A stretch of 20,000 nucleotides of DNA from an uncultured virus (IMG/VR IMGVR_UViG_3300033141_001794) (IMGVR_UViG_3300033141_001794); one strand, 5' to 3'; positions 6,001 through 17,954 are shown, numbered from the stretch's first letter. Numbers and translations: made by a program. The notes: generated by a model not told the origin, from the sequence alone.

Positions 6001-6124
6001 TGAACTGTTGAAAGCAACGAGAATTACCCAGGACCTCTATGATGAAATTCTGGCAGAAATACAGAAGGCGCAGGAAAAGAGTGCGAAGGCTGAAGATGTT
6101 GTAATTAAAGCTATGGAGGAGTAA
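1..6124 (+). CDS. Large polyvalent virion-type protein: DarB-like SNF2/SF2 helicase + zincin-like HExxH motif + LPD38-like C-terminal domain (5'-truncated)
   Basis: The frame is open from the window edge (..T-F-V-M, as expected just after a Walker A GKT). It contains VDEAHNFKN (motif II), STGTPIDN (III), MGEGTNMQ (V) and QRDGRIIRQGN (VI), plus AHELGH at 4112-4129 followed by EELVAE. The C-terminal KENNYII..YWKIPK and LLIEPIANYDFY segments resemble LPD38. Confidence 0.85.
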   Translation, partial: TFVMSAAVMELKRLGIAQKPLIVVPNHMMKQLPREFLSIYPNANLLVSTKTDLNKKNRNRFMSKIAMGNWDGVIVPMSSFGLLPMSKKSQADYIAREIDDLEIAIRQMKEEEGGGRDNKLIKQIEGMRKRMAEKYQALLDNPKDDTVTFEELGIDFMMVDEAHNFKNLFFATKQGRIAGVSNTASKRASDLFMKTRYLNKLRPGRNLVFSTGTPIDNTIAEMYTMQRYLQMESLEQTGLTHFDAWTSMFAEPVTGWELSPDGKRMREHTRMRSFVNLFQLNQMFREVADVKVQKDLNLKVPKQKTGGPQIVAAKASEHLKVYVDSIIARMENMPPDPREDNFLKATNDGRKAALDMRLIDPHLPDNPDSKINKAIENIFDIWKKTKADKSTQIVFCDLSTPSKERRKLKEELEERVKQAEAEGREPDVTQDEWLSLQSNFSVYDDVREKLIEMGVPEKEIAFIHDYNSDEKKASLFKKVNDGDIRVVMGSTAKMGEGTNMQERAYALHHLDAPWKPGSIKQRDGRIIRQGNTNEEVETFRYVTEQSFDAYLWQILENKALMIEQVLTDPTKQRVDDVSMVALSAAQAKAAASGNPLQMEKVKVDSDVSRLQAMKKYHDRDQFRYKREAKELPDRIAIKKKKVAGVEKDLKKRTDTLKGDKFKAIIDEIEYDKRSAADLAMEKIVKKRPGPQDALGNIGGFDFTMRFDKLDPTLFEFIVKGENDYPTGFTKTAAGGLSRMVNVVSGLEDQIKTEEKGISKLERELNTVKEQVGKPFDKEEELTKLVKRQEEVFKEIQNEGQEDTVEEILDEMGVTDVETKEPAVDDTDVGINVEDYNFDKKTYTTPQWEKKYYGKYKGNDFVTDGTLFYRDYWGLTEAFKESGEGTELTPENLEKAIPEPVDREAKPLKVYALDKKIDAVLFYDGEAYRSIDKKLYNTIRLQFPGATFKFGPEERSPISFYRDDVFEGVVMPILPNENTRAVIKNLESDKGTGGKQLYSMTESEARDKKPKTLPEETVTDIVKSMGSPEATRNQLLTEANAKEGEKFLTRWERIYQGAKDATVSIRKVQKIFEKELGVKVTPINDIEYAIDRVRGSGGTAKQFVADWLSPIFEEIRKSTKEVRLHRKAGQIGKISRNLEQYLIAKRQVWLYENKPKYDDVGYTQEWSQGVIDDVESGKTPDAALIQASANKIWNYSVKLKGIKKSFGIIDEEFEKMLREPYYVPFFRDVEKKVVPGIRGEKFTAMSKGIKRIKGSKSGRNIRNVFANLITITNETLVNAARNEVFNGIIKMSEESTEIGELIKKLPPRWKVAGTIEHRHEIDKFLSPELSKIIEELGAKEGVKIKMGKYTGSFSSENKEVMTMFGATESTKAHELGHLIDQDVIRLQDMVRKYPKEMVAVGSTRYEGGEATQSYIRYVHKNEELVAEFVSMYITDRTRLAELAPDAIRDFEGRIQKHKTLKKLIKLYPSRRKAIEKITEKNWILDTSIPSDEDVISGFVGGKMEHYRVPAELASAVKNLHPEQIPIALRVLTIPTSILRKGAVQFNVDFFIPNSLRDQIGATFTRKFYPVVDYLAGLKHYIAQDEVYKQYLRMGGAMDSPESGVVQLQRSAKELIYGSKRGEFFDPHYWKETGLMRKTLDITSYFAKAPFRAIAKLGEASEQATRLGVFERGLKSGENVMAAIHSGRQASLEFQRFGTHGRVPNQIVPFINVALEGVDRAIRSAYGNPKRFAMAAFTYGIAPTIALTIWNTTGDDEDEYKNVSDRDKENNYIIMRHDGTGRYWKIPKSHIVRMIANPFQLAWERSIGTSMGSWHDPASTVWRAASPIDGLGAIVPTGLKLLIEPIANYDFYWRQTIESHNMRAIGQPGLRAEKGTSETLKKIGKALNISPIMMQHEINTLFSGLGRHTLFAVDWALGKTGIQPETEITENRIPVLRRFLGKAEDWKGEASRAVRDINKAVSAIDRMSVKGLMKYNKYKPVEALKVYRENKAMKVKLLRRKIELLKATRITQDLYDEILAEIQKAQEKSAKAEDVVIKAMEE

Positions 6125-6126
6125 GC

Positions 6127-6381
6127 GTGAAGAAACCAAAGATTAACTATCAGTTTTTGACTTTAATGTTAAGCATTGTAGGATCCCTGGTATATGGCAC
6201 TATGCGTTTTGCAAAGCTGGAAGAGAGGGAGTTGCAGCACTACGAAAGCCAGTGTGAAAAGAATATAGTTTATATCGAAAGTATTCAAAACCTGACGTGT
6301 GCTGTAAAATGCCTTACTACTACTACAGACAGTCTCAGGTATGAAATTAAGTTTATCAATTTTAGGAATGGATTGGAATAA
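6127..6381 (+). CDS. Small protein with an N-terminal transmembrane helix
   Basis: GGAGG RBS and GTG start; hydrophobic FLTLMLSIVGSLVYG; tightly packed behind the large gene. Confidence 0.7.
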   Translation: MKKPKINYQFLTLMLSIVGSLVYGTMRFAKLEERELQHYESQCEKNIVYIESIQNLTCAVKCLTTTTDSLRYEIKFINFRNGLE

Positions 6382-6623
6382 TGTCAGATGAAATACTCGA
6401 TTTAAAAGACCAGACACCAGAAGCGCAGGCGATAGAGCCTTATACTACTAAATTAATGGATTTATTAGATCAGCGAAAGGTAATGTGGGATAAGCAGCCA
6501 GATTCAGAAGAAAAGAAGAAGTGGTTAATATCCAGGCGAGATCCCATTCTCGATATTGCTGAAACTATAGGCACTTATATATATAACGAATTTCCGGAGA
6601 TCATAGATGGTTTACGTAAATAA
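6381..6623 (+). CDS. Hypothetical protein
   Basis: TAATG stop/start coupling within the operon. Confidence 0.65.
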   Translation: MSDEILDLKDQTPEAQAIEPYTTKLMDLLDQRKVMWDKQPDSEEKKKWLISRRDPILDIAETIGTYIYNEFPEIIDGLRK

Positions 6624-6957
6624 AAATTTTAGCAGGGGCAAGATAAAAAAGATAACTCCGGAAAAGGGTGATCAATTTTACCGGTGTAACTTCTCCCAAT
6701 TGAAAGTAACAGAGATATTTAAGGGAATTAAGAATCTTGATTTCGAGGCCTGTAATCTTATGAATTGTATTCTTCCTGCTGGTACGAAGCCTCCAAAAGA
6801 CTGTTTAATTGTTCGAAAGAGCATGTGCAGTCACATTCATCCTGATGTAAGGCCTCTCTGTCCCGTAAATTGCCAACATGTAATTGATACTTATACTATT
6901 AAAATCGACAATAAGCAGGCTAACAAATCCTATAAATATGAAGACAAGGTGATATAA
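6607..6957 (+). CDS. Cys-rich hypothetical protein with short pentapeptide-like repeats
   Basis: FYRCNFSQ / FEACNLMNC repeats and a CSHIH..CPVNCQH cluster; GGAG RBS; coupled to the next gene. Confidence 0.7.
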   Translation: MVYVNKNFSRGKIKKITPEKGDQFYRCNFSQLKVTEIFKGIKNLDFEACNLMNCILPAGTKPPKDCLIVRKSMCSHIHPDVRPLCPVNCQHVIDTYTIKIDNKQANKSYKYEDKVI

Positions 6958-7964
6958 TGCCCGACAGATATTACAAATCAACCGGAAGTAACACGGCCCC
7001 CTATGATACGTGGGTCAAGGCTGCAACGGCTGCACAGACAATAATTGATCTTGCAGTAGCAGGTGACACAAACCATTATTCGGGTACAATTAATGCAATA
7101 TTAGATGTTGATACGAACTCTGGTGCAATAGGGAGTTGGATAAAACACATAGGACATAATAATGATGCGGCCCCTGTTTTAGATGGTACAAGAGTGTTGG
7201 TTGATGGCGCTGGTGTACGTGCTAATTGTATTGGCGCCTGTGATAAAAATTATCATTGGTGGGAAAATTTTGAGTTTACAAGGGCTACAGGTGATGGTGT
7301 TAATTTAGTTGACGCTCCAGATCCTCAAAACTGGGTATTTAAGAATTGTATTTCTCACACAAACGGTGCTGATGGTTGGGGTGGCGATGGGGGTGCGGGT
7401 ACTATTTATTATATACGATGTAAAGCATATAACAACACAGCAAGAGGTTGGGACAGGGCAACCAAAAACGCCAGAGTAATATTGTGTGCTTGTTATGGTA
7501 ATGGTACGGCAGGGCTTTATGAGGGTAATGGTGGGACACTTGTGCTGAACAGTTTATTTTACGACAACGGAGATGTTGCACAGAATTGTTATATTAATGT
7601 TAATGCTGAAGTGATAAACAATGTGTTTGATGGTACTAACCAAGCAAATTCAACGGGACTGCTAACAAAGCAGGATGGTGGGGTTGTGATGTTTAACAGG
7701 TTTACAAACTGCACCATAGGATTAGATGCTGACTTGGAATTTAAAATAGTGGGGTATAACTATTTCCATGACAACACCGCAGATACGGCAAATGCAGTAA
7801 ACTTAGAATTGTTGTTAAATGATCTTGGATTGGATACTAATGAGTATGATGTTGATGTTGACGATGGGTATAATAATGCCGCTACAGCAGATTATAACTT
7901 AAAAGATTCACGCACTTATAATGGTAATGGTGATGATACTGTTGACCTTGGGGTTGGAGTATAA
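6957..7964 (+). CDS. Right-handed parallel beta-helix (pectate-lyase-like) protein, putative tail spike or virion carbohydrate-binding protein
   Basis: Repeating N/C/G-rich units (NCISHTNGADGW, RCKAYNNTARGW, LCACYGNGTAGL, NSLFYDNG) and a C-terminal DYNLK. Confidence 0.7.
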   Translation: MPDRYYKSTGSNTAPYDTWVKAATAAQTIIDLAVAGDTNHYSGTINAILDVDTNSGAIGSWIKHIGHNNDAAPVLDGTRVLVDGAGVRANCIGACDKNYHWWENFEFTRATGDGVNLVDAPDPQNWVFKNCISHTNGADGWGGDGGAGTIYYIRCKAYNNTARGWDRATKNARVILCACYGNGTAGLYEGNGGTLVLNSLFYDNGDVAQNCYINVNAEVINNVFDGTNQANSTGLLTKQDGGVVMFNRFTNCTIGLDADLEFKIVGYNYFHDNTADTANAVNLELLLNDLGLDTNEYDVDVDDGYNNAATADYNLKDSRTYNGNGDDTVDLGVGV

Positions 7965-8212
7965 TGGCACAGACAGGTTCAGTAAAACGAGTTATTACAT
8001 CGGGAATACCTACAATACTTGAAACGGGTAGTGTAAAGTTTCAGATTTGCGCGGGTATTCCAAGTGCGTGGACAGCCGCAGGACCAGGCCCCGAGCCTCC
8101 AACTCCTCCCAGCGAAACCCTGAGAGTAGTCAAAAGCTCTATATCTACTTCCATAGGCCTCTCTCTTTCTGCTTTTATAATGATGATGATAATCTTAATG
8201 GTGATGGTGTAA
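7964..8212 (+). CDS. Small protein with an internal repeat, Pro-rich linker and hydrophobic C-terminus
   Basis: TGSVK..I..GIP occurs twice; PGPEPPTPP linker; AFIMMMIILMVMV tail; GGAG RBS and TAATG coupling. Confidence 0.6.
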   Translation: MAQTGSVKRVITSGIPTILETGSVKFQICAGIPSAWTAAGPGPEPPTPPSETLRVVKSSISTSIGLSLSAFIMMMIILMVMV

Positions 8213-8213
8213 T

Positions 8214-9845
8214 ATGGCAGCAGATTTAATATGTATTGGCGGTGACAGTATTAGGATGGGTTATGATAATAGGGTGGAGGCTTTAATGCCTGCAACTACT
8301 TTTTTTTATAACCCTGCTAATGATCAAGACATGCTGACGTTGTATGGTCATTTAGACACTTATTTGGCTTATATGCCAACCATTTTTCATCTTAACGCTA
8401 CATATCACGATGCGGTAGGAGGAACTACTGATGGGCAGTATGAAGCTCGATTGAGAGATGTCCTTGATAAGTTACTGTCTGTTTATAGGTTGACAATTGT
8501 TTGGGCGCTTGGAACACCTGTTGATAATCCGGTTGACGATGCAAGGGTTGTTGAATTAAACACAATAGCTACAAATGTTATAAATTCATACGGAAACGAC
8601 AGGATATCTATAAACGATTTGTATCAATTTTCGGTTGATAACGGGTTGGTGCGTCATGATGGCGTCCATTTTATAGCAGCCGATTATCAGCAAATTGCTA
8701 TTGAAGTTCAAGGGGTTTTGACCCCATTATTAAGGAGTGGAAGTATGCCTTTACGATATGGTAATTCAAGGTTTTATAGAACCATCCAGGTTAAACCTGC
8801 TAATGTGTATGTTAATGATACGAATGTGCCAGTGTGTCTTTCTGAAGCTGATACTGTCAATGTGCCTGCTGGAGCATATAGAAATGATGGGGGCGATATT
8901 GTTGTAACTGATGCAAACGGTGATCTTATACCAAGAGAAATTGCAACCTTCAATCAAGGTGCTGCTACTATGCAATTATGGTATCGTGATCCTGTGCAAA
9001 ACGTAGCCACAGGTGGCACAGAACTATATCTTCAGTGGGGCGGCTCTGACGTAAATGAAGCTAATAATCCAGTTACTTGGTTTAATAATTTTGGTGGTGC
9101 TGCTCATTGCCAACCGAGCATTCACTGTGAAGAAACTGCTGCAAATTTAACAGACAGTAGCGAGGTTTATACTGCTGCCGATGCTAATATGGTGTATAAC
9201 CAAGCAGGGCAAATAGATGGTGCAGCAGGTTTTAACGGAACAAATTCCTTAAACTCTTGGGGAGATGTTACTGCTTTAAATGGAGTGGTACGATTTACAC
9301 ATCAATACTGGATAAGAATAGTCGATATAACGGCAGCGGATATTACAGCACGAAAACGGGCAAATAACACCAGAAGATACCTTGTTTATAATACAGGTGG
9401 TTCAATGCGTGTGTATGTATGTAATGGTGCCGCCTCTTATGGGCATTTTGCTTTGGCTGGAAAGATTGCTAATAATACATGGGCGCTTGTTACCATAGTA
9501 TATGATGGTTCACTCGCAGGGGATGCAAACAGGTTGAAAATATATGTAGGCACTACTCAAATGGTGCTTGCTTTTGTCAATGCCATACCCGCAACTGCCG
9601 GGAACATGGCTGCCATTGCCTTTGAAATGGGAGACAATGGAGGCATAAGCTCACTTGATGGACGGATAGATGAGAACAGAATTATAGCCGGCGCACTATC
9701 ATTAAATCAAATAAGAGGCCAATATGACAACCAGAACGAGTTCGGTGCAAACGGGACTGTTAATGTCGGTGAAATAGTGTCGTTTCAGACAAACAGAATA
9801 ATCCAATCTCACATGGGACTGACTCAAAACGCAATGTCTTTGTAA
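8214..9845 (+). CDS. SGNH/GDSL hydrolase + DUF2341-like + LamG/concanavalin-A-like domain protein (putative tail or receptor-binding protein)
   Basis: GDS nucleophile motif (IGGDSI), block III HLNAT.HD and block V DGVH; a middle DIVVTDANG..IPREI..LWYR segment; LamG-like WALVTIVYDG..LKIYV..GRIDE. Confidence 0.75.
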   Translation: MAADLICIGGDSIRMGYDNRVEALMPATTFFYNPANDQDMLTLYGHLDTYLAYMPTIFHLNATYHDAVGGTTDGQYEARLRDVLDKLLSVYRLTIVWALGTPVDNPVDDARVVELNTIATNVINSYGNDRISINDLYQFSVDNGLVRHDGVHFIAADYQQIAIEVQGVLTPLLRSGSMPLRYGNSRFYRTIQVKPANVYVNDTNVPVCLSEADTVNVPAGAYRNDGGDIVVTDANGDLIPREIATFNQGAATMQLWYRDPVQNVATGGTELYLQWGGSDVNEANNPVTWFNNFGGAAHCQPSIHCEETAANLTDSSEVYTAADANMVYNQAGQIDGAAGFNGTNSLNSWGDVTALNGVVRFTHQYWIRIVDITAADITARKRANNTRRYLVYNTGGSMRVYVCNGAASYGHFALAGKIANNTWALVTIVYDGSLAGDANRLKIYVGTTQMVLAFVNAIPATAGNMAAIAFEMGDNGGISSLDGRIDENRIIAGALSLNQIRGQYDNQNEFGANGTVNVGEIVSFQTNRIIQSHMGLTQNAMSL

Positions 9846-9872
9846 ATATATATATTACCTCTTATATAGCTT

Positions 9873-9905
9873 AAAGCTCTTCAGAAACGGAGAGCTTTTT
9901 TATTT
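9873..9905 (+). terminator. Rho-independent terminator ending the structural module
   Basis: AAAGCTCT(TC)-loop-(GG)AGAGCTTT hairpin followed by a T-tract. Confidence 0.8.
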
Positions 9906-9915
9906 GAGATTTAGC

Positions 9916-9944
9916 TTGACTTTCCATTAACATTGTAGTAACTT
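9916..9944 (+). promoter_or_regulatory. Sigma70-like promoter for the early operon
   Basis: TTGACT-17 bp-TAACTT immediately after the terminator. Confidence 0.55.
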
Positions 9945-9988
9945 ATAAGAGAAAGGAATAACTAAACCATTTATCAAAGGATAAACTC

Positions 9989-10156
9989 ATGTTGAAGATT
10001 CCCGAAGACCAAAAGGCAACAAAGCCAATATTGGTTACAAAGATCCAGCATAAGCAGATCTGGAAGCTCGCAAAGAAGAGAAATCAGAAGATTACAGAAC
10101 TTATAGATAGCTGGCTGGGCTACGATGAATTGAAGGAAGAGCTTAATGCGTCTTAA
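9989..10156 (+). CDS. 55-aa putative ribbon-helix-helix (Arc/CopG-like) regulator, absent from the ORF track
   Basis: AAAGGA RBS; MLKIPEDQKATKPILVTKIQHKQIWKLAKKRNQKITELIDSWLGYDELKEELNAS fits a beta-strand/helix/helix pattern; first gene after the promoter. Confidence 0.6.
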   Translation: MLKIPEDQKATKPILVTKIQHKQIWKLAKKRNQKITELIDSWLGYDELKEELNAS

Positions 10157-10229
10157 CCCATCAGAGAACAGAAAGCGTGTCCAGCGCTTATTGAGAGATA
10201 TAAAAAAGGTTCGATCTGATGAAAAACAT

Positions 10230-10337
10230 GAGCCGGAAGGTAGCGCAGCGGAGCGCAAGGGCTTTCCCTGGTTTGGGAGTATCTTGCTCGTTCAAATCGA
10301 GGCAAGAGGGCCTGTCCGTAGCTTTCCGGCTCTTTTT
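10230..10337 (+). ncRNA. Candidate structured RNA with tRNA-like D-arm and T-loop elements
   Basis: Closing helix GAGCCGGAAG/TTTCCGGCTC followed by a T-run; inner GCGC-AGCGGA-GCGC, TCCC-N6-GGGA and TCTTGCTCG-TTCAAAT-CGAGGCAAGA. Confidence 0.4.
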
Positions 10338-10361
10338 AATTAACCCTATCAAGGAGTTGTT

Positions 10362-10550
10362 ATGGAAACAGTAAGATTAATAGTTTGTTCAAATGTTAGC
10401 GGAGAAGAAGAGACAATGACATTTACAGACGATTTTGAAGTAAGTTCTGAAGATTATTGCTCGTCCGGTCAAACAGTAGATATTGACAAAAAAATTGAAA
10501 TGGATGTTCCTTCAGGCTTTCCAATGAATCATACTTTTGTAAGGAATTAA
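10362..10550 (+). CDS. Hypothetical acidic protein
   Basis: AAGGAG RBS, ATG start. Confidence 0.6.
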   Translation: METVRLIVCSNVSGEEETMTFTDDFEVSSEDYCSSGQTVDIDKKIEMDVPSGFPMNHTFVRN

Positions 10551-10631
10551 TTGAAACGCAGCGCAGACCTCTTAGCAATAGCGATAGTATTGGGATTGAT
10601 AGCACTTACCCTCATTATCATTTATTTATAA
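10551..10631 (+). CDS. 26-aa single-pass membrane peptide, absent from the ORF track
   Basis: AAGGA RBS and TTG start; MKRSADLLAIAIVLGLIALTLIIIYL fills the gap exactly. Confidence 0.5.
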   Translation: MKRSADLLAIAIVLGLIALTLIIIYL

Positions 10632-10641
10632 AGGAGATCAC

Positions 10642-10872
10642 ATGGCAGACTCGTTAGGCATTACACTCAAGAAGGAACTGTTAATCGACATGGCCAAAGC
10701 TCGCAGCGGGGAGATATTGCCCTGCACAGCTCGGAAGACTTTAGACAATTGTTTCACAACCAGTCCAGAAGGCGTTTTATTTCTTTGGTATGTTGAAGCG
10801 GAATCCAAAACCACTCGCCTTATAAGCGAGAATACTGATATTAACGAGTATTTAACAAAGGAGGCACAATGA
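10642..10872 (+). CDS. Hypothetical protein
   Basis: AAGGAG RBS; overlaps the erf start. Confidence 0.7.
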   Translation: MADSLGITLKKELLIDMAKARSGEILPCTARKTLDNCFTTSPEGVLFLWYVEAESKTTRLISENTDINEYLTKEAQ

Positions 10873-11612
10873 TGAAAAAAGACCTGGTTCCTCAGAACGA
10901 GCAGGCACCAGTAACCGCAGTTAATTCACCAGCTGACATAATGCAGTTAGCTATGAACAAGGACCTTGATCTGGACCGCATTGAGAAGATGCTTGAACTC
11001 CAGACCAAGTATGAAGAGCGTGAGGCAAAGAAGGCCTATACACAGGCCATGGCTAACTTTAAAGCCAATCCTCCGGAAATATCCAAGGATAAGAATGTCC
11101 AATATCAAACTTCAAAGGGACAGACAAATTATAGCCATGCTACCCTTGGGAATGTAACCCAGAAGATTAACCAAGCTCTTGCCGGTCACGATCTTTCTGC
11201 AGGGTGGAAAACAGAGCAGGATAAGGATAATATCACAATTACCTGTACAATAACTCATGCTCTTGGACATAGCGAAAGCACTTCCCTGTCGGCTGGTGCT
11301 GACACTTCTGGAGGGAAAAACAGTATCCAGGCCGTAGGGTCCACAATCACATATCTGGAAAGATATACTCTTCTTGCCCTCACCGGTCTTGCTACCCATG
11401 ATCAGGACGATGATGGCCGGGGAAGTGAAGGTGAAGGCCTTGTTTATATCACAGACAATCAGAAGTCTACTATTGTGGATATGATTGCAGACACTTCGGC
11501 CAATGAAGCAAGGTTCTTAAAATATCTCGGTGCAGAATCGATTGATACTATTCCGGCCACATTTTATAACAGGGCTATTAAGGCATTGGAAGTTAAAAAG
11601 GAGCAGGCATGA
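10869..11612 (+). CDS. erf: Erf-family single-strand annealing protein
   Basis: Erf signature CTITHALGHSES...KNSIQAVGSTITYLERYTLLALTGLA...DDDG; AAGGAGG RBS. Confidence 0.9.
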   Translation: MMKKDLVPQNEQAPVTAVNSPADIMQLAMNKDLDLDRIEKMLELQTKYEEREAKKAYTQAMANFKANPPEISKDKNVQYQTSKGQTNYSHATLGNVTQKINQALAGHDLSAGWKTEQDKDNITITCTITHALGHSESTSLSAGADTSGGKNSIQAVGSTITYLERYTLLALTGLATHDQDDDGRGSEGEGLVYITDNQKSTIVDMIADTSANEARFLKYLGAESIDTIPATFYNRAIKALEVKKEQA

Positions 11613-12214
11613 TAATCGTAGAAGGAATTAAGCAAAACAGTCTGGAATGGTACGCTCTTAAGCTCGGCATTCCCAGTGCTTCCAGCTTTGACAAGATAAT
11701 TACAACCAAGGGAGTTGTATCAAAGACGCGAGCGAAGTATCTGTATAAACTGGCTGGCGAGGTTGTAACTGGTGAGCGTGAGGAGGGATATAACAATTCC
11801 AATATGGATCGAGGCCATGAGCGCGAAGAAGAGTCCAGAAATGCCTATGAGCTCATTAAAGATGTTGAGGTGGAACAGGTAGGCTTTGTCTATTTTGATG
11901 AAAAGAAAGACATTGGCTGTTCTCCTGATGGCCTTGTGGGTGAAGATGGAGGATTCGAGACAAAGGACGCTCTTCCTCATGTTCATCTTGATCGATTAGA
12001 GAATGGCTGGTCAGAGTCACAGCATTTTCAGCAGGTCCAGGGAAGTCTTTATGTTACTGGCCGGAAGTGGTGGGACCTTGTAAGTTATTCCAGAGGGTTC
12101 AAGCCTTTAATCATCAGGTTTGAACGTGACGAGGAGTTTATTAAGAAGTTAGCTGTTGAACTCCGCTTATTCAATAACAACTTAAAAGATGTCGTTAAAA
12201 AGTATTCTGTATAG
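11609..12214 (+). CDS. YqaJ/lambda-exonuclease-family nuclease
   Basis: QNSLEW..LKLGIPSAS, MDRGHERE, CSPDGLV, FETK and QVQG motifs; ATGA-coupled to erf. Confidence 0.9.
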   Translation: MIIVEGIKQNSLEWYALKLGIPSASSFDKIITTKGVVSKTRAKYLYKLAGEVVTGEREEGYNNSNMDRGHEREEESRNAYELIKDVEVEQVGFVYFDEKKDIGCSPDGLVGEDGGFETKDALPHVHLDRLENGWSESQHFQQVQGSLYVTGRKWWDLVSYSRGFKPLIIRFERDEEFIKKLAVELRLFNNNLKDVVKKYSV

Positions 12215-12222
12215 GAGATATT

Positions 12223-13053
12223 ATGGAAACCACTGAACTCATGACTATTAACCAGGAGAACGCTCTTGAAGTATTTACCGGAGACAAGCTGCCGGAATAT
12301 TTAAAAGCTATTAAGGAAGATGCTTTAAACTTTGTTGCAGATCCTGATACTGCTACTGGGAGAAAGCAGATAGCATCAAAAGCCCACTCTATTGCAAAAG
12401 AGAAGGTCCGTATAGATAATATTGGCAAGGTCCTGGTGGCTGACTGGAAAGCAAAGAGTTATATGGTTGATGAAGCCAGGAAGAAGACCCGGGATTTTAT
12501 GGACGATGTTAAAAAGGAGGTTCGCCTGCCATTGACCGAGTATGAGGATGCTAAGAAAGCGGTAGAAGAAGCAGAGCGCCAAGCTATCAAGAAGGAGATG
12601 GAATGGGAAGAGGCCCTGGTTGAAGATGATTTCTTTAACCGGAAAAAGGAGGTTGAGCGCAAAGAGGCTGAGTTGAAAGCCCAGGAAGAAGAGCGTCTTG
12701 CTAAAGAGAAGGCTCTCCAGGCAGAGATTGATCAGAAGAACCGTGAAGAGAGGATAAAACTGGAAGCCAAAGAGAAAGCGGAACGCGAAGCAGCTGATAA
12801 GATTGAGGCACTAAAGCAGGTCCAGCGTGACAAGGTAGCAAAGGAACTCGCTGAGAAAGAGCGCATTGAGGAAGAGAAGCGGGAGGCCCAGAGACTTGCT
12901 GATCGGAAAGCTGCTAACCTGAATCACCAGCGGAAGATCAACCGGGAAGCGCTCGAGGGCTTTGTTGACCATGGCCTTACAGAAGAGCTTGCTAAAAACA
13001 TCATTACCCTGATAGCCAAGGGTGAAATCAAACACATTTCTATTAAGTATTAA
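12223..13053 (+). CDS. Coiled-coil phage protein, E/K/A-rich
   Basis: AGGAG RBS; long charged helical region. Confidence 0.75.
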   Translation: METTELMTINQENALEVFTGDKLPEYLKAIKEDALNFVADPDTATGRKQIASKAHSIAKEKVRIDNIGKVLVADWKAKSYMVDEARKKTRDFMDDVKKEVRLPLTEYEDAKKAVEEAERQAIKKEMEWEEALVEDDFFNRKKEVERKEAELKAQEEERLAKEKALQAEIDQKNREERIKLEAKEKAEREAADKIEALKQVQRDKVAKELAEKERIEEEKREAQRLADRKAANLNHQRKINREALEGFVDHGLTEELAKNIITLIAKGEIKHISIKY

Positions 13054-13056
13054 AGG

Positions 13057-13281
13057 ATGGGTGATATGGGAGACATGGCAGATTTGATGTTAGATGGTAC
13101 AATGTGTTCGGTATGCGGAGTGTATCTGGGTAGTGACGCTGACTACCCTCAAATGTGTGCAGATTGCGAAAAAGAAGAGAAGGAGGCTCGCGCAGAGGAC
13201 CAACACGATGAAACCAGGAAGCCTGCTAACCTGACATGGAACAGAGAAACCGGAAAGTATGAGTCTGCAAATGCCAAATAG
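13057..13281 (+). CDS. Small zinc-finger-like protein
   Basis: CSVC...CADC. Confidence 0.65.
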   Translation: MGDMGDMADLMLDGTMCSVCGVYLGSDADYPQMCADCEKEEKEARAEDQHDETRKPANLTWNRETGKYESANAK

Positions 13282-13525
13282 AACCCTGTATCCCTGCACC
13301 TGTAACGGCTTTGAGAATAATCCTTATTGCGTCTTCCATTATTCAAAGGAAACCAGAATAAGAATATCACCAGTGATTCAGGGATTAAAAGATCAATATC
13401 AATTTAATCACCAGGAAGCTTATGAGAGAGGTGTTGAATTAATTTGTAACGAATTGAAACAGGAAGAAAAAGAACGTAAGCTATTGATAGAAAGAAAGTA
13501 CTATAATTCACTTAAAGTTGCTTAA
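13259..13525 (+). CDS. Hypothetical protein
   Basis: CTC..CVFH motif; overlaps the previous gene; start uncertain. Confidence 0.55.
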   Translation: MSLQMPNRTLYPCTCNGFENNPYCVFHYSKETRIRISPVIQGLKDQYQFNHQEAYERGVELICNELKQEEKERKLLIERKYYNSLKVA

Positions 13526-13603
13526 AAAGAATGTGAGTGCGTATAGCGACTTGTTGTATGACATTATGAGAATCTTTAAATTGTAAAAAGGAGGTTTTGC
13601 TAT

Positions 13604-13912
13604 ATGGAATACCAAATAGTAGTTGAAAGTGACCCGTTTAGAATGGCAGAGTGCGTAAATGATATGTGTAAAGATGGGTGGATGCCGGTAGGTTCGCACC
13701 ACGTTGCTTTTGAGCCTGGTCAAATATGGTATTACTCACAAGCGGTAGTCCGCAAAACTCCTAACACTAAGGAAGCTTTACAAAACGACACACAACAACT
13801 ACAGGCTAAAATTGCCGATTGTGCATTGGTGATTGAAAATAGTGAAAAGGGGCTTGGAAGTATCACGAAAGGTGCAATTGCACACAGGCTTCGGCAACTA
13901 TCAGCCGTGTAG
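13604..13912 (+). CDS. Cassette 1: DUF1737-like protein
   Basis: MEYQIV...VNDMCKDGWMPVG...YSQAVV pattern; AAGGAGG RBS; the stop lies in the hairpin right arm. Confidence 0.6.
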   Translation: MEYQIVVESDPFRMAECVNDMCKDGWMPVGSHHVAFEPGQIWYYSQAVVRKTPNTKEALQNDTQQLQAKIADCALVIENSEKGLGSITKGAIAHRLRQLSAV

Positions 13913-13923
13913 GAACGTTGTCG
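13787..13923 (+). repeat. attC-like site S1
   Basis: CAAC-AA-CTACA-GGCT-AAAA-TTGCCGA ... TCGGCAA-CTATC-AGCC-[G]-TGTAG-GAAC-GTTG. Confidence 0.8.
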
Positions 13924-13987
13924 ATCAATCCCGCTGGGGTTGGGCAGCACGATTTTAATTGTAGTTTAACGAATTGGAGGCTAAATT

Positions 13988-14284
13988 ATGGGAGTATCGG
14001 GTAAAAGTGTAAAGAAGTTTTCAGAAGGAAATTTAGCTATTACAAATGGCGTTCATTTAGACAGCGACTATAAACATGTTTTTTTTGACATAACTGAATG
14101 TGATGATAAGAAGGTTAAGCTAAAAAGTCACTGGAATAGTACTGAGTTTAATTGTGTAATAGAAACTGATACTTTTGGCGAACATACAACAATTAAACAG
14201 ACTTCTGAGGTAGAAAAATTTCTTTTTCATATAAAGTCAAAAAAATTTAAGGTAAGACCGATGAAAGGTGACAGGATTGGATAA
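13988..14284 (+). CDS. Cassette 2: hypothetical protein
   Basis: GGAGG RBS, ATG start. Confidence 0.65.
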   Translation: MGVSGKSVKKFSEGNLAITNGVHLDSDYKHVFFDITECDDKKVKLKSHWNSTEFNCVIETDTFGEHTTIKQTSEVEKFLFHIKSKKFKVRPMKGDRIG

Positions 14285-14428
14285 CAATTCGTTAAAGGAA
14301 AAAGCAAATTGAACGTCACAATGGAAAAAATAACCAGCGGGCACGCGGATGTTAAACACCGCTTTAATCGACAACGCCCTCTTACAAACCGATTGAGAGC
14401 TTGTCTAATGTCCACTCCAGCCGGACAG

Positions 14429-14503
14429 CCGACAACAATCTTAGGGGAAAATATCAGGACGAAAAGAAGCCCTGACACGTTCCCCCGTAAGAGGGCGTTG
14501 CAG
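14429..14503 (+). repeat. attC-like site S2
   Basis: CAAC-AA-TCTTA-GGGGAA-AATA-TCAGG ... CCTGA-CACG-TTCCCC-[CG]-TAAGA-GGGC-GTTG. Confidence 0.75.
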
Positions 14504-14564
14504 GAAATTAAACCGCTAAGAGCATAATTGTAGTTTGGCTCATTAGCAGAAAAGGATTGTAAAA

Positions 14565-14873
14565 ATGGAAATTGATTACGGAAATGGAAAAACTAAATAT
14601 GGGCCTGGTGTGCAAATAGAATTAAGCGGCGGCGAGGTGGCAATTGCAATAGACACATATTTAACAGCACACAATGTATATATATCCGGCCCCAGAACTA
14701 TTACAGTAAACAATGAGCTGTGTAAAATTGGGAGTGTCTATGTTGATCCATCTGGGTTTGCAATTGCTAATGGTATAAAATATAGTGGTAGAGGTTCAAG
14801 CCTTCGCCAAAAGAGAATTAAGGAAAACGCGGTTGAACATCCTGCAACACCGAAAGGCCAAAATGACAAGTAA
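14565..14873 (+). CDS. Cassette 3: hypothetical protein
   Basis: AAAGGA RBS; the stop lies in the S3 loop. Confidence 0.7.
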   Translation: MEIDYGNGKTKYGPGVQIELSGGEVAIAIDTYLTAHNVYISGPRTITVNNELCKIGSVYVDPSGFAIANGIKYSGRGSSLRQKRIKENAVEHPATPKGQNDK

Positions 14874-14899
14874 CTTCGGCCATTCCGGGAACGTTGTCG
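14840..14899 (+). repeat. attC-like site S3 (shortest)
   Basis: CAAC-A-CCGAAA-GGCC ... GGCC-[A]-TTCCGG-GAAC-GTTG. Confidence 0.75.
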
Positions 14900-14944
14900 G
14901 AAATACCGAATCGATTGTAAATTGGGTGATAAACGGAGGTTAAA

Positions 14945-15220
14945 ATGCAATTTTTAGACAAGTTGGGGTGGCCTGTTGAAAGAGTAAAGGGCAGGCCGGT
15001 GTTAAATTTTTTGCGGTTGTTAATTCACACCCGTAAAATTAAGCGGGGCAAGTTTGTTTACAAGCAGGAACCATCACCCAATGTAACTTGTGGAAATTCG
15101 GAACATACCGACAACAAGACACAGCCTAAAACTTCGGCTTTTGGTGATGCGGTTCGTAAACATGCCGAAAAAGAAGGAATTGATTTGGATGTTAAGCCTA
15201 AACAAATTTACGGTGGGTAG
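14945..15220 (+). CDS. Cassette 4: hypothetical basic protein
   Basis: GGAGGT RBS; the stop lies in the S4 loop. Confidence 0.65.
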   Translation: MQFLDKLGWPVERVKGRPVLNFLRLLIHTRKIKRGKFVYKQEPSPNVTCGNSEHTDNKTQPKTSAFGDAVRKHAEKEGIDLDVKPKQIYGG

Positions 15221-15252
15221 CCTTCGCATCAGGCGTGTGCAAGACGTTGGAG
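15108..15252 (+). repeat. attC-like site S4
   Basis: CAAC-AAGA-CACA-GCCT ... AGGC-[G]-TGTG-CAAGAC-GTTG. Confidence 0.7.
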
Positions 15253-15282
15253 TAAATTTTTTCTTTTGAGATTGGAGTTTTT

Positions 15283-15519
15283 ATGCGTGATAATGATATT
15301 GAAAGGTTAGACTATCACCTTAGTCGTAAAGAGTTTAAATCGCTCCGTTTTGTGTGGGATCGCATAAAAAAGGCTTTAAGCGGAAGCGAAAAAACTCCCA
15401 CCAACAACGACAGCCCAAAATTGCATTGTCCTAAGTGTGGCGCAACCGACAATATAGCACAATCGACAGAGGGGCATAAGTATCATTGTTTTAGGTGTGA
15501 TAATTACTGGAAAAAATAA
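15283..15519 (+). CDS. Cassette 5: protein with a C-terminal zinc ribbon
   Basis: GGAG RBS; CPKCG...CFRC. Confidence 0.7.
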   Translation: MRDNDIERLDYHLSRKEFKSLRFVWDRIKKALSGSEKTPTNNDSPKLHCPKCGATDNIAQSTEGHKYHCFRCDNYWKK

Positions 15520-15550
15520 TGCAACTGTCGGGCGTGTCTTGACGTTGTGA
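15399..15550 (+). repeat. attC-like site S5
   Basis: CAAC-AAC-GACA-GCCC-AAAA-TTGCATT ... AATGCAA-CTGTC-GGGC-[G]-TGTC-TTGAC-GTTG. Confidence 0.8.
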
Positions 15551-15583
15551 CGAAATTAATCCTTTAGAATATTGGAGTTGCGA

Positions 15584-15835
15584 ATGAAATTAAAAGAAGC
15601 TATGAAAACAATCGGGAGTTTGGTATCTGGTTGCGGTTATTCAAAGGATGTTGATGCGTATAATGTCATTCGCAAAGCATTAGAGGAAGCGGATGAACTG
15701 TCGCACAACACCGCCAGGGATGCCATCGCTTTCGTTGAACAGGTAAAAGGGTGTAGTAAGCGGGTGGCCGGTTCGAACAAAGTATTAGTTGCATTAATCA
15801 ATCAGGCTGCGGTCATAGCGCAACGGCACCCATAG
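15584..15835 (+). CDS. Cassette 6: hypothetical protein
   Basis: The GGAG RBS favours ATG 15584 over TTG 15572; the stop lies in the S6 right arm. Confidence 0.65.
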   Translation: MKLKEAMKTIGSLVSGCGYSKDVDAYNVIRKALEEADELSHNTARDAIAFVEQVKGCSKRVAGSNKVLVALINQAAVIAQRHP

Positions 15836-15850
15836 CGTAATCCGTTGTTT
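15703..15850 (+). repeat. attC-like site S6
   Basis: CAAC-AC-CGCCA-GGG-[A]-TGCC ... GGCA-CCC-[A]-TAGCG-TAATCC-GTTG. Confidence 0.75.
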
Positions 15851-15894
15851 TCAATTAACCGCCGATTATAGGTCGGCAGAAAGAAAGGTAACAG

Positions 15895-16437
15895 ATGGAT
15901 GATAAACAAACGTTAGTGGAGTCCGGCAAGCAGTTGACGGCAACTTTGCCAAATGATACGATGCGTATTATGAGCATTGCTATTGAAACCTTAGCCGTGG
16001 CAAGGGATAATTTAAAGAAACGTCTTGGCAACTGTAATGTTTCACAAATGGTTGCAGAAAGTGACGATAGATATTCTGCGATATTAACAGAACCTAATGG
16101 TAAAAAACATTTCTGGAAAAAGGACGGTTCTTATGATGGTAACGATAAGGAGTGCTCTGACGACATTTATAAGGAAGCGGTTAACACTGCGGAATTGAAA
16201 AACCAGATTATAGGGGTTATTAACCAGGCCGACAATCTAACAATTAAACAGATGCACGCAAATGTTGACAATATTTTCAATTCCTTGCCCTCACGGGAAA
16301 AACAACAAACGCAGCCTGCAATTAAGTTACTACAGGAGTTTTTGGAAGTTTACCAGTCGTGCGGAATATCAAGTGAATTAGCAAACTTTGCTGACAAGGT
16401 ACATAGTTTCGTAACTGAACAGCAGGCGGGTGCGTAA
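15895..16437 (+). CDS. Cassette 7: hypothetical protein
   Basis: AAAGGT RBS; the stop lies in the S7 right arm. Confidence 0.7.
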   Translation: MDDKQTLVESGKQLTATLPNDTMRIMSIAIETLAVARDNLKKRLGNCNVSQMVAESDDRYSAILTEPNGKKHFWKKDGSYDGNDKECSDDIYKEAVNTAELKNQIIGVINQADNLTIKQMHANVDNIFNSLPSREKQQTQPAIKLLQEFLEVYQSCGISSELANFADKVHSFVTEQQAGA

Positions 16438-16447
16438 TCCGTTGTCC
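16299..16447 (+). repeat. attC-like site S7
   Basis: CAAC-AA-ACGCA-GCCTGC..AGTTAC ... GTAACT..GCAGGC-[GGG]-TGCGT-AATCC-GTTG. Confidence 0.75.
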
Positions 16448-16474
16448 AAAATATTTAAAATTGGAGTGTTGTAA

Positions 16475-16726
16475 ATGGAAAATTTAACAAGGTATTGTTT
16501 ATTAAAAGGGGCGTTTGATGGATGTTCTTGCAAAATCGTTGAGGTAGACGATGGTGATTATACCAAATTTTCCGACATTAAGGATATTTTAAACAAATCG
16601 GACAACAAAGCTATGGACGCAATTATCGACAAAGTAGACGAATATATCAATAGCCATTGGGAGAGCGAAATGGTTGTTGAACGGCTTCGTTCTTTTGCTG
16701 CCTGGTGTCGACAACAGCGCCAGTAG
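16475..16726 (+). CDS. Cassette 8: hypothetical protein
   Basis: GGAG RBS; the stop lies in the S8 right arm. Confidence 0.7.
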   Translation: MENLTRYCLLKGAFDGCSCKIVEVDDGDYTKFSDIKDILNKSDNKAMDAIIDKVDEYINSHWESEMVVERLRSFAAWCRQQRQ

Positions 16727-16739
16727 CTAAACGTTGTAT
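16600..16739 (+). repeat. attC-like site S8
   Basis: CAAC-AA-AGCTA-TGG-[A]-CGC..TCGACA ... TGTCGA..GCG-CCA-[G]-TAGCT-AAAC-GTTG. Confidence 0.8.
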
Positions 16740-16770
16740 GCAATAAATTTTTTCAAAAAGGAGTTGTATA

Positions 16771-17091
16771 ATGGCCGAAAAATTATTACCATGTCCGTTT
16801 TGCGGGAAAAATCCAAAGGTTTTAGCAAGAGGTTCAATCATGTGTAGTAATGACAGTTGTTCGGCAGGCCCAATGGCTATGATGTCAATGTTTGCTTCTA
16901 AAAAGGCGTGTGTAAAAGGCTGGAATCATCGGCCACAAATTAAGGAAGAAAAAATTGACAACACACAACACACAAAGGCTACAATTGCTTTGGAGGACGT
17001 GGGTAAAATTTTAAAAAGTTATCCACGTGAAATTAACCCAAATTTTGCCGCAAACCTTATTGTTGAAATGGAAAAAAAGGCGCAACAATAG
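16771..17091 (+). CDS. Cassette 9: Lar-like (restriction alleviation family) zinc-binding protein
   Basis: LLPCPFCG...CSNDSC...KKACVKGWNHRP matches the Lar-family pattern; AAGGAG RBS. Confidence 0.7.
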   Translation: MAEKLLPCPFCGKNPKVLARGSIMCSNDSCSAGPMAMMSMFASKKACVKGWNHRPQIKEEKIDNTQHTKATIALEDVGKILKSYPREINPNFAANLIVEMEKKAQQ

Positions 17092-17111
17092 CCCTTTGCT
17101 GTACGTTGCAC
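16962..17111 (+). repeat. attC-like site S9
   Basis: CAAC-ACA-CAAA-GGCTA-CAA-TTGC ... GCAA-CAA-TAGCC-[C]-TTTG-CTGTAC-GTTG. Confidence 0.75.
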
Positions 17112-17150
17112 AAAATTAAACCGCTAAGAGCAGAATTGTAGTTTGGCAAA

Positions 17151-17408: not shown

Positions 17409-17954
17409 GTGAATGAGAAATTTGTAGACATACCAGGATGGAAAGGGCTTTATCAGATTTCTAATTTAGGTAGAGTTAAAAGTTTAGCAAGACCTCTTTT
17501 TAATGGGGCGGGATATTTTAAATCAAAGGAACAAATATTAAAAACAAGCAAAAATATTAATGGTTATCTATCTTTACGTTTGTGCGGGAGCGGGGAACGC
17601 TACAAGGTAGATGTTAGTAGGTTAATGAAATTGGCATTTTTTAACAATTCAAAGCTGGAAATAGACCACATAAACGGAGACAAAACAGATAATCGGTTAG
17701 ACAATCTTAGGCTTTGTACTCATTCACAAAATCATTTTAATATCAAAAAGGCGGGAAGGTGTTCTTCTCGGTTTAAGGGTGTTTATTTTATAAAAAAAAC
17801 CAATAGGTGGTGTGCAAGAATAACGGTGAAAGGTAAAACTTATAGACTCGGCAATTTTTGTACAGAAGAAGACGCAGCAAAAGCCTATGATGTTGAAGCC
17901 AAAAAGCGTTGTGGAGGATTTGCTGTACTAAATTTAAGCTCCGAAAAATCGTGA
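17409..17954 (+). CDS. NUMOD4-HNH-AP2 homing endonuclease
   Basis: DIPGWKGLYQISNLGRVKSL (NUMOD4); IDHINGDKTDNRLDNL (HNH); SRFKGVY..WCARI..LGNF.TEEDAAKAYD (AP2). Confidence 0.9.
   Translation: MNEKFVDIPGWKGLYQISNLGRVKSLARPLFNGAGYFKSKEQILKTSKNINGYLSLRLCGSGERYKVDVSRLMKLAFFNNSKLEIDHINGDKTDNRLDNLRLCTHSQNHFNIKKAGRCSSRFKGVYFIKKTNRWCARITVKGKTYRLGNFCTEEDAAKAYDVEAKKRCGGFAVLNLSSEKS

Follow-up and report, generated by a model that had tools for sequence, protein, structure and literature searches.

Clusters of attC sites lacking integron-integrases (CALINs) have been reported in 17 phages, and IntI1 recombined five of the six sites tested there (Qi et al. 2023, PMC9892861). In the description of attC given by Cury et al. 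(2016, PMC4889954), R and L boxes, an unpaired spacer and extrahelical bases are followed by a variable terminal structure of ~20-100 nt, and in the chimeric attC sites of the same paper the 5' end of an integron cassette matches its own R''. Here we describe an array of nine gene cassettes (13553-17108) in a 20,000-nucleotide stretch of DNA from an uncultured virus (IMG/VR IMGVR_UViG_3300033141_001794; hereafter the window). Each cassette ends in an attC-like hairpin, and most of the hairpins are predicted to encode the last ~40 residues of the cassette protein as well. We put the probability that this is an integron-type gene-cassette array without an integrase, similar to a CALIN, at roughly 80%. 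To our knowledge, integron-type arrays in phages have been reported only recently, and with canonical attC models only.

The general plan of the array is that of integron cassettes. Its nine units, 292-597 bp each, are all on one strand, and each consists of one open reading frame (ORF) and one imperfect hairpin, co-oriented. The hairpin terminates the cassette and is closed by CAAC...(C)GTTG; hairpin coordinates given here run from the start of CAAC to the end of GTTG. Each cassette also has a GGAG/AAGG box ahead of its ATG, 30-67 nt past GTTG. As in attC sites, AAC/GTT triplets are present (CAAC...CGTTG in nine of nine window sites), together with two stems, an unpaired spacer, bulges and a variable loop. 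As in integrons, the cassette border lies at GTT and the 5' end of a cassette complements its own left foot. As in CALINs, there is no integrase beside the array.

The array also departs from integrons. Its foot reads GTTGTAnGa, not GTTRRRY. Its long sites have a coding loop, with the ORF ending at the right arm, and its breakpoints fall at the left foot as well as the right. Unlike integron attC sites, its hairpin classes were found in virus contigs only, and in none of 185,579 bacterial species genomes. A complete integron would have intI, which was not found, though the first junction of the array (13553), which has no hairpin, is attI-like. The site family is an integron-like variant.

Two other phage systems invite comparison. 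In T4-type phages, small accessory genes in hyperplastic regions are swapped at repeated stem-loops, the promoter early stem-loops (PeSLs) (Arbiol et al. 2010, PMC2839356; Comeau et al. 2014, PMC4122927). The cassettes described here are likewise small accessory phage genes that are gained, lost and swapped at stem-loops. PeSLs are intergenic promoter-terminator motifs that are conserved in sequence and thought to use homologous recombination, whereas the sites of the array are conserved in structure, overlap coding sequence and show the complementarity of circular cassettes. Moreover, the stems of the array vary between units, and a promoter-like repeat follows just two of the nine. The second system is the attP of phage CTX, a folded single strand used by the host XerCD: a hairpin of ~150 nt with two inverted half-sites ~90 nt apart. 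It illustrates how a phage without its own recombinase uses such a site, but it is one integration site, whereas the array holds many cassettes.

One of the CALIN phages listed by Qi et al. (2023, PMC9892861) is Polaribacter phage P12002L. Its 48.7-kb genome (NC_028924) contains four CAAC...GTTG hairpins with an asymmetric spacer, where the rate in window shuffles leads to an estimate of fewer than one by chance; these hairpins may or may not coincide with the sites that Qi et al. tested. Two of them (32800-32925 and 39125-39245) have the opposite polarity to the leftward genes and hold a gene start in the loop, unlike the gene end held by the array's loops. The start of gp42 lies inside one of the P12002L hairpins (L053). 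A literature search, with most subscription journals outside its scope, returned no paper on coding attC loops or on in-frame overlap of phage attC sites.

Near-identical phages differ at this locus by whole cassettes cut at GTTG. One relative (L003, from G001) matches the window from 5600 to 15848 with 99.98% identity and then diverges, with another cassette, a Lar-like one, from 2 nt past the hairpin-6 GTTG onwards. Another (L002) is the same as the window as far as GTTGTA at 13553-13558 and returns to identity at ACGTTG (16731), from where it is 100% identical to 19023. In place of cassettes 1-8 it has a single other cassette with a short hairpin, so that between shared borders eight cassettes are swapped for one. 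This cassette begins TTGTAAGA, and TCTTACAAC precedes its hairpin. Junctions in both relatives lie 2-3 nt past GTTG; the comparison does not narrow the crossover down to a single base. A third case comes from the array of another phage, G005, in which a 318-bp duplication ends exactly at GTTG. Recombination at these hairpins, as proposed in a preliminary description of the locus, is thus what the polymorphism records. The two copies of the duplicated G005 cassette (40372-40689 and 41374-41692; L023 15578-15690 and 16581-16693) are 99.7% identical; the right edge is exactly at GTTG, and the left edge is CCA(C)CAATGG, with no recognised site. An invertible segment, with inverted repeats around ~100 bp, was considered and rejected: all variants are whole-cassette differences and none is an inversion.

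The two ends of a cassette are complementary. When the 5 nt that follow one GTTG are set against the 5 nt that precede the CAAC of the following hairpin, 32 of 45 positions are complementary; the flanks of a single hairpin give 12 of 45, and 32 was reached in none of 100,000 permutations. A 6-nt version of the comparison gives 3.9 in the window against 1.7 and 1.8, and in other arrays 3.7 of 6 (n=18) against 2.4 and 2.6. This complementarity is the hallmark of circularisable, integron-type cassettes, in which the foot of the hairpin would be a 9-bp stem in the circle.

The same hairpin classes are present in other phages. Four more virus contigs came up when the unit-1 tail, aligned with two homologous tails, was used as the query: G003 (17.8 kb), G004 (117 kb, 65% complete), G005 (86 kb) and G006 (164 kb, complete). 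The tail sequences therefore work as markers for other arrays, as the preliminary description had suggested they might. Our own hairpin detector found about 5 hairpins in G003, about 5 in G004, more than 20 in G005 and 2 in G006. Those of any one contig are grouped in a single stretch and lie on the gene strand, and the remainder of the ~380 kb has almost none. By BLASTP, a cassette tail is the sole protein that these contigs have in common with the window.

Comparison of these hairpins reveals that stem positions change together. In class A (7 hairpins from four phages), 96.1% of cells are paired and 10 of 22 pairs have double changes; the covariation score was reached in none of 500 shuffles, and sliding the partners by one base lowers pairing to ~30%. 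In class B (8 hairpins), 93.8% are paired, with double changes in 7 of 20 pairs and again none of 500 shuffles reaching the score. As judged by this covariation, the fold is under selection. G-U cells number 1-2 per set (153 and 160 cells), a near-lack that fits DNA better than RNA. Over 41 sites the consensus is aTCnTACAAC-A ... AAAC-GTTGTAnGAA, with A after CAAC in 38 and C before GTTG in 36; the 32 sites outside the window had themselves been searched for by CAAC/GTTG. Of 32 detector calls, 29 have a left spacer shorter than the right one. In the window, sites are 52-146 nt long and have a second stem of 9-13 bp with a one-base bulge.

Chance does not produce such hairpins at this density. 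Twelve of the 15 copies of CGTTG on the plus strand of the window lie between 13702 and 17104. A constrained-fold detector returned 14 candidate pairs covering all nine units, its three minus-strand matches also lying within the array, and none outside the array on either strand of the window; thirty window shuffles gave 0-6. A stricter stem detector, run on the plus strand, returned ten matches (nine in six of the nine units, and one at 7024-7138) against 0-1 in twenty shuffles.

Could cassettes be exchanged without any site-specific enzyme? Microhomology in the feet (5-9 nt) and arms (~25 nt) might suffice for annealing through Erf and YqaJ or for template switching, much as proposed for PeSLs. 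The array is preceded, at a distance of 1.3-2.7 kb, by genes for Erf and YqaJ, G005 encodes RecA/UvsX-like and RuvC-like proteins, and no integrase was found in any array-bearing record; breakpoints at the left foot, too, are not predicted by canonical attC recombination. However, the compensatory covariation of the stems means that the fold itself is selected, and the match between the 5' end of a cassette and its own left flank points to a folded circular intermediate. Furthermore, the junctions of near-identical phages share just 5-9 nt. We consider enzyme-free exchange unlikely.

The hairpins are not confined to intergenic DNA. In eight of nine units an ORF runs through the left arm and reaches a stop whose last base lies 7-29 nt short of the end of GTTG; unit 2 is the exception. 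The eight stop coordinates in the preliminary description (13912, 14873, 15220, 15519, 15835, 16437, 16726 and 17091) are all ORF ends in the ORF list of the window, and the eight left-arm peptides quoted with them are all present in the translations. Units 1, 7 and 9 have CAAC at codon position 1, unit 3 has it at position 2, and units 4, 5, 6 and 8 have it at position 3. The statement that hairpins are read in all three frames holds only when the short hairpin of unit 3 is counted: phase 2 is confined to this single 52-nt site, and the long hairpins use phases 1 and 3 only. Two frames are in use within class B alone: two cassettes translate it in phase 1 (QQAKCAM...) and five in phase 3 (NSKSTPC...). 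A G005 class-A hairpin that seemed to provide a second-frame example was rejected, as the real ATG ORF runs in phase 1.

The loops are open in the frame that enters them. Five records contain 26 hairpins that are 100 nt or longer. In 21 of these, the incoming frame (that with the longest upstream open stretch) is open through the loop and stops within -12 to +45 nt of the end of GTTG, against 8 of 52 for the other two frames; of the five misses, one or more reflect a wrong choice of frame. Pfam domains finish ahead of the left arm, at residues 3-50 of 102 for DUF1737 and 3-54 of 106 for Lar, and class-B tails retain CxxC pairs. An AlphaFold2 model of the unit-1 protein (18-row alignment) has a predicted local distance difference test score (pLDDT) of 95-98 in the domain and 64 in the linker, and places helices at residues 56-79 and 86-101 of the tail (pLDDT 70-86). 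Its predicted template modelling score of 0.50 means that domain and tail are not confidently placed relative to each other.

It had been proposed that the constraint is on the DNA and not on the protein. The first half of this proposal stands for the arms, whose stems carry compensatory changes (10/22 and 7/20 pairs) and of which one class is read in two frames. The second half is too strong: loops are open in frame in 21 of 26 against 8 of 52, some tails are zinc-ribbon-like, the unit-1 tail is predicted to be helical, and each class uses only one or two frames. The unusual trait of the array is that the gene runs on into the site, and a division of labour is well supported by the sequence comparisons, in which the arms are constrained by DNA structure and the loop by coding. 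Compaction of the cassettes through such dual coding is plausible.

Homologues of the unit-1 protein tell the same story from the protein side. A phmmer search gave 21 matches. Four DUF1737-like proteins of 51-57 residues end directly after the domain. Four others (P0003, P0004, P0005 and P0010) have residues 1 to 64-73 in common with it, covering the domain, the linker and the CAAC codons, and then continue into unrelated tails. The homologue comparison proposed in the preliminary description thus comes out as expected, with short forms ending after the domain and long forms diverging in the tail past the CAAC codons. By contrast, P0014 and P0016 have different N-termini and tails that match the unit-1 tail at 51-60% identity, including GSITKG-I--RLR-LSA, and P0008 and P0011 keep only the arm-encoded stretches (QQLKAKI ... 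KLSAV/I). Look-alike C-terminal tails on otherwise unrelated proteins, which the same description had predicted, are therefore real. In all, the DUF1737-like domain and linker are joined to at least five unrelated tails, and the class-A tail to at least eight unrelated N-termini.

The point at which these parts are joined can be located. The unrelated phages G005 and G006 have one N-terminal cassette block in common (92% identity), and the DNA identity stops exactly at TCCACCAACA, past which the two phages have hairpins of different classes in the same phase. From such comparisons we conclude that domains and tails have changed partners at the left foot, besides the movement of whole cassettes. 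It is possible, if on balance doubtful, that both feet are exchange points of one system, in which GTTG would move cassettes and an in-frame exchange at CAAC would re-pair N-terminal domains with C-terminal modules.

These coding data also bear on a very different explanation, namely that the inverted repeats are a by-product of a common C-terminal protein module and that the DNA fold is incidental. The two helices predicted for the unit-1 tail (pLDDT 70-86), the in-frame openness of the loops and the 51-60% identity of the P0014 and P0016 tails to unit 1 are all in keeping with a module of this kind. A protein module does not account for GTTG and its conserved flank, which lie past the stop codon in eight of eight units, nor for arms that are translated in two frames. 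Moreover, stem changes are compensatory at the DNA level, and P0008 and P0011 retain nothing but the arm-encoded stretches. An incidental fold is very improbable.

A hairpin stands at the 3' end of every cistron, and folding as RNA is also possible, so the structures might serve in mRNA as signals between cistrons, for processing, stability or termination. No T-run follows the hairpins, and terminator-like sites number 2 against 4.1 expected, neither of them at a hairpin end. The scarcity of G-U pairs among the 153 and 160 cells argues in the same direction, as does the lack of any Rfam family match. A role in mRNA would leave unexplained both the cassette polymorphism cut at GTTG and the complementarity of cassette ends, and we give it next to no weight.

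Several findings weigh against reading the array as integron-type. The right foot fits GTTRRRY in none of the nine window sites and in one of 41 overall. The class-A right-arm pattern had three matches in the 185,579 bacterial species genomes, taken to be chance, with no hairpin array at any of the loci, and this lack of class-A hairpins means that no bacterial integron is known with such sites. The Rheinheimera and Lachnospiraceae metagenome-assembled genome (MAG) matches were rejected as ordinary sequence without a left arm; the Woeseiaceae MAG match was scanned only. Rfam release 15, at E<=10, gave four weak unrelated matches, of which the only one in the array is a chance fragment of an internal ribosome entry site. 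Pfam recombinase families were not found in the 28 ORFs of the window, nor PF00589 at E<=0.1 in G002-G006, which include two complete genomes. No protein family is common to all array-bearing contigs. For the sites in other phages, the false rate of the hairpin detector at its loosest setting, ~1 per 39 kb per strand, also has to be considered.

The wider search for a recombinase covered 45 ORFs flanking the arrays and 62 further G005 ORFs (of 94 G005 ORFs of at least 90 residues); the others were covered by an earlier scan, belonged to array cassettes or spanned the borders of sequence chunks. These Pfam scans returned replication and repair genes and parts of IS605, and no recombinase candidate common to the arrays. 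Resolvase is present in one of five records, G006. Parts of IS200/IS605 elements (Y1 TnpA and several TnpB/Cas12f-like ORFs) were seen in G005 (L021 9763-11022 and 14339-15756) and in G006 (L027), with one set 2-6 kb after the G005 cassette array. The DNA polymerase III alpha of G005 (L044 17454-19727) has an intein-splicing-domain match (E 1.7e-5, below the curated cut-off). It is scarcely credible that a hairpin-reading HUH single-strand transposase (Y1, IS200/IS605-type) moves the cassettes: Y1_Tnp occurs in two of five records (G005 and G006), with TnpB genes near the G005 array, but G004 (65% complete), G003, G001 and the window have none, each cassette has a single large hairpin rather than a left-end and right-end pair, and the guide-and-cleavage-site logic of HUH enzymes does not predict complementarity between cassette ends.

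On the integron-type reading, a cassette comprises one small ORF with its own ribosome-binding site, and a single attC-like site. This site has a foot of tCnTACAAC / GTTGTAnGa and an unpaired spacer that is asymmetric, with typically 1 nt in the left strand against 4 nt in the right, followed by a bulged second stem of 9-13 bp, a third stem in some classes and a loop of up to ~100 nt. A recombinase that reads the folded single strand would exchange strands inside GTTG or directly past it (at G|TT, if integrons are a guide), and cassettes would excise as circles and then re-insert. In the protein, the left arm would supply a linker and the loop a C-terminal module of ~25-40 residues, either a helical hairpin or a Cys-rich knuckle, with the stop in or just before the right arm. 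The enzyme would be a tyrosine recombinase of the IntI or Xer type whose gene lies in another part of the ~68-kb phage genome or in the host.

The array, all on the plus strand, opens at the first junction site GTTGTATGA (13553-13561), where the comparison with L002 places its start. No CAAC occurs in the 170 nt upstream, and it is because it lacks an upstream left arm that we call this site attI-like. The first ORF (13604-13912, 102 residues) has a DUF1737-like domain at residues 3-50, a linker and a 38-residue tail from hairpin 1 (13793-13920), a three-helix class-A hairpin that covaries with six relatives in other phages. The second ORF (13988-14284, 98 residues) ends 88 nt short of the left arm of hairpin 2 (14372-14500), which has a perfect 14-bp foot, CAACGCCCTCTTAC / GTAAGAGGGCGTTG. 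A second CAAC at 14433 is able to pair with the same right arm. Distant as it is from its ORF, hairpin 2 may be a fused or ORF-less site. Directly 3' of it is the promoter-like 44-nt repeat (14496-14539), whose second copy (17104-17147) follows hairpin 9; the copies are 93% identical and both end in AATTGTAGTTTGG. A shorter AATTGTAGTTTAA is seen after hairpin 1. The repeat may, from its sequence, be a cassette-borne promoter; a sigma-70 scan did not pick it out.

In the third cassette, the ORF (14565-14873, 102 residues) stops within the loop of the short hairpin 3 (14845-14896, 52 nt), with CAAC at codon position 2. The fourth ORF (14945-15220, 91 residues) has a 36-residue tail in hairpin 4 (15112-15249). 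A zinc-ribbon-like tail, CPKC...CFRC (Pfam Zn_ribbon_10, E 0.002, below the curated cut-off), ends the fifth (15283-15519, 78 residues; hairpin 5, 15402-15547). The sixth (15584-15835) starts at the ATG at 15584, or alternatively at a TTG at 15572, and has a 42-residue tail; its hairpin 6 (15706-15847) is the one 2 nt past whose GTTG L003 diverges. A 44-residue tail completes the largest protein, of 180 residues (15895-16437; hairpin 7, 16303-16444). The eighth ORF (16475-16726, 83 residues) has a 41-residue tail, and identity with L002 restarts in its hairpin 8 (16603-16736), at ACGTTG (16731). The ninth (16771-17091, 106 residues) combines a Lar-like domain at residues 3-54 with a 41-residue tail and is closed by hairpin 9 (16966-17108), the last of the array.

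Relatives of the array are scarce. Neither blastn with the array nor tblastn with unit 1 gave any match in 50,697 deposited phages, and a word-indexed protein search with the Lar-like protein and the unit-1 tail found only the queries themselves. Scans of viral contigs gave no relatives of the 180-residue cassette protein and only self matches for the promoter-like repeat and the right-arm pattern. A scan of viral and metagenome contigs with phrog_1376, a gene upstream of the array, found the two near-identical contigs, the distant high-GC relatives L004, L005 and L009, and the short contigs L008, L010 and L011; L004 and L005 were scanned and hold no array. A smaller DUF1737 alignment led to G002, a complete 39-kb phage with a DUF1737 homologue and no array. 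Inspection of G002 by eye shows one CAAC...GTTG hairpin spanning the part of a 110-residue ORF that encodes its zinc-ribbon tail (L015 5843-5966). G002 also has a perfect 9-bp hairpin (L015 6400-6440) ending ACTTGTTGTAT, the same 11 nt as the first junction of the window.

The window is phage DNA, and cassette proteins are present on contigs of up to 67,839 bp. The array is set in an early/accessory region of this uncultured phage, with Erf and YqaJ genes on one side and an HNH endonuclease on the other. The window begins in a DarB-like polyvalent protein (11-6124; PHROG 10089, E 1.7e-248; LPD38 domain), which exceeds 2037 residues, includes a SNF2-like helicase part and is truncated by the window start. 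Beta-helix and lectin-like tail proteins are also encoded. Erf (10869-11612), YqaJ exonuclease (11609-12214) and the phrog_1376 protein (12223-13053) precede the run of small ORFs, and a NUMOD4-HNH-AP2 homing-type endonuclease (17409-17954) and a replisome-organiser-like protein follow it. The endonuclease gene lies 300 bp past the last hairpin; a connection to the array was not found.

The different foot, the site classes shared among unrelated uncultured phages and not found in bacterial genomes, and the lack of an adjoining integrase point to a cassette pool of the phage world with an unknown recombinase. As a practical matter, arm-encoded peptides such as QQLKAKI...LSAV are markers by which further arrays can be found. 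As predicted from the sequences, the recombination site here would double as coding sequence for a C-terminal module. This bears on the genesis of cassettes, that is, on how genes acquire attC sites, and on the shuffling by cassette systems of protein parts and not only of whole genes. If both feet are indeed points of exchange, the array would be a DNA-level exon-shuffling device for combinatorial, two-part small phage proteins.

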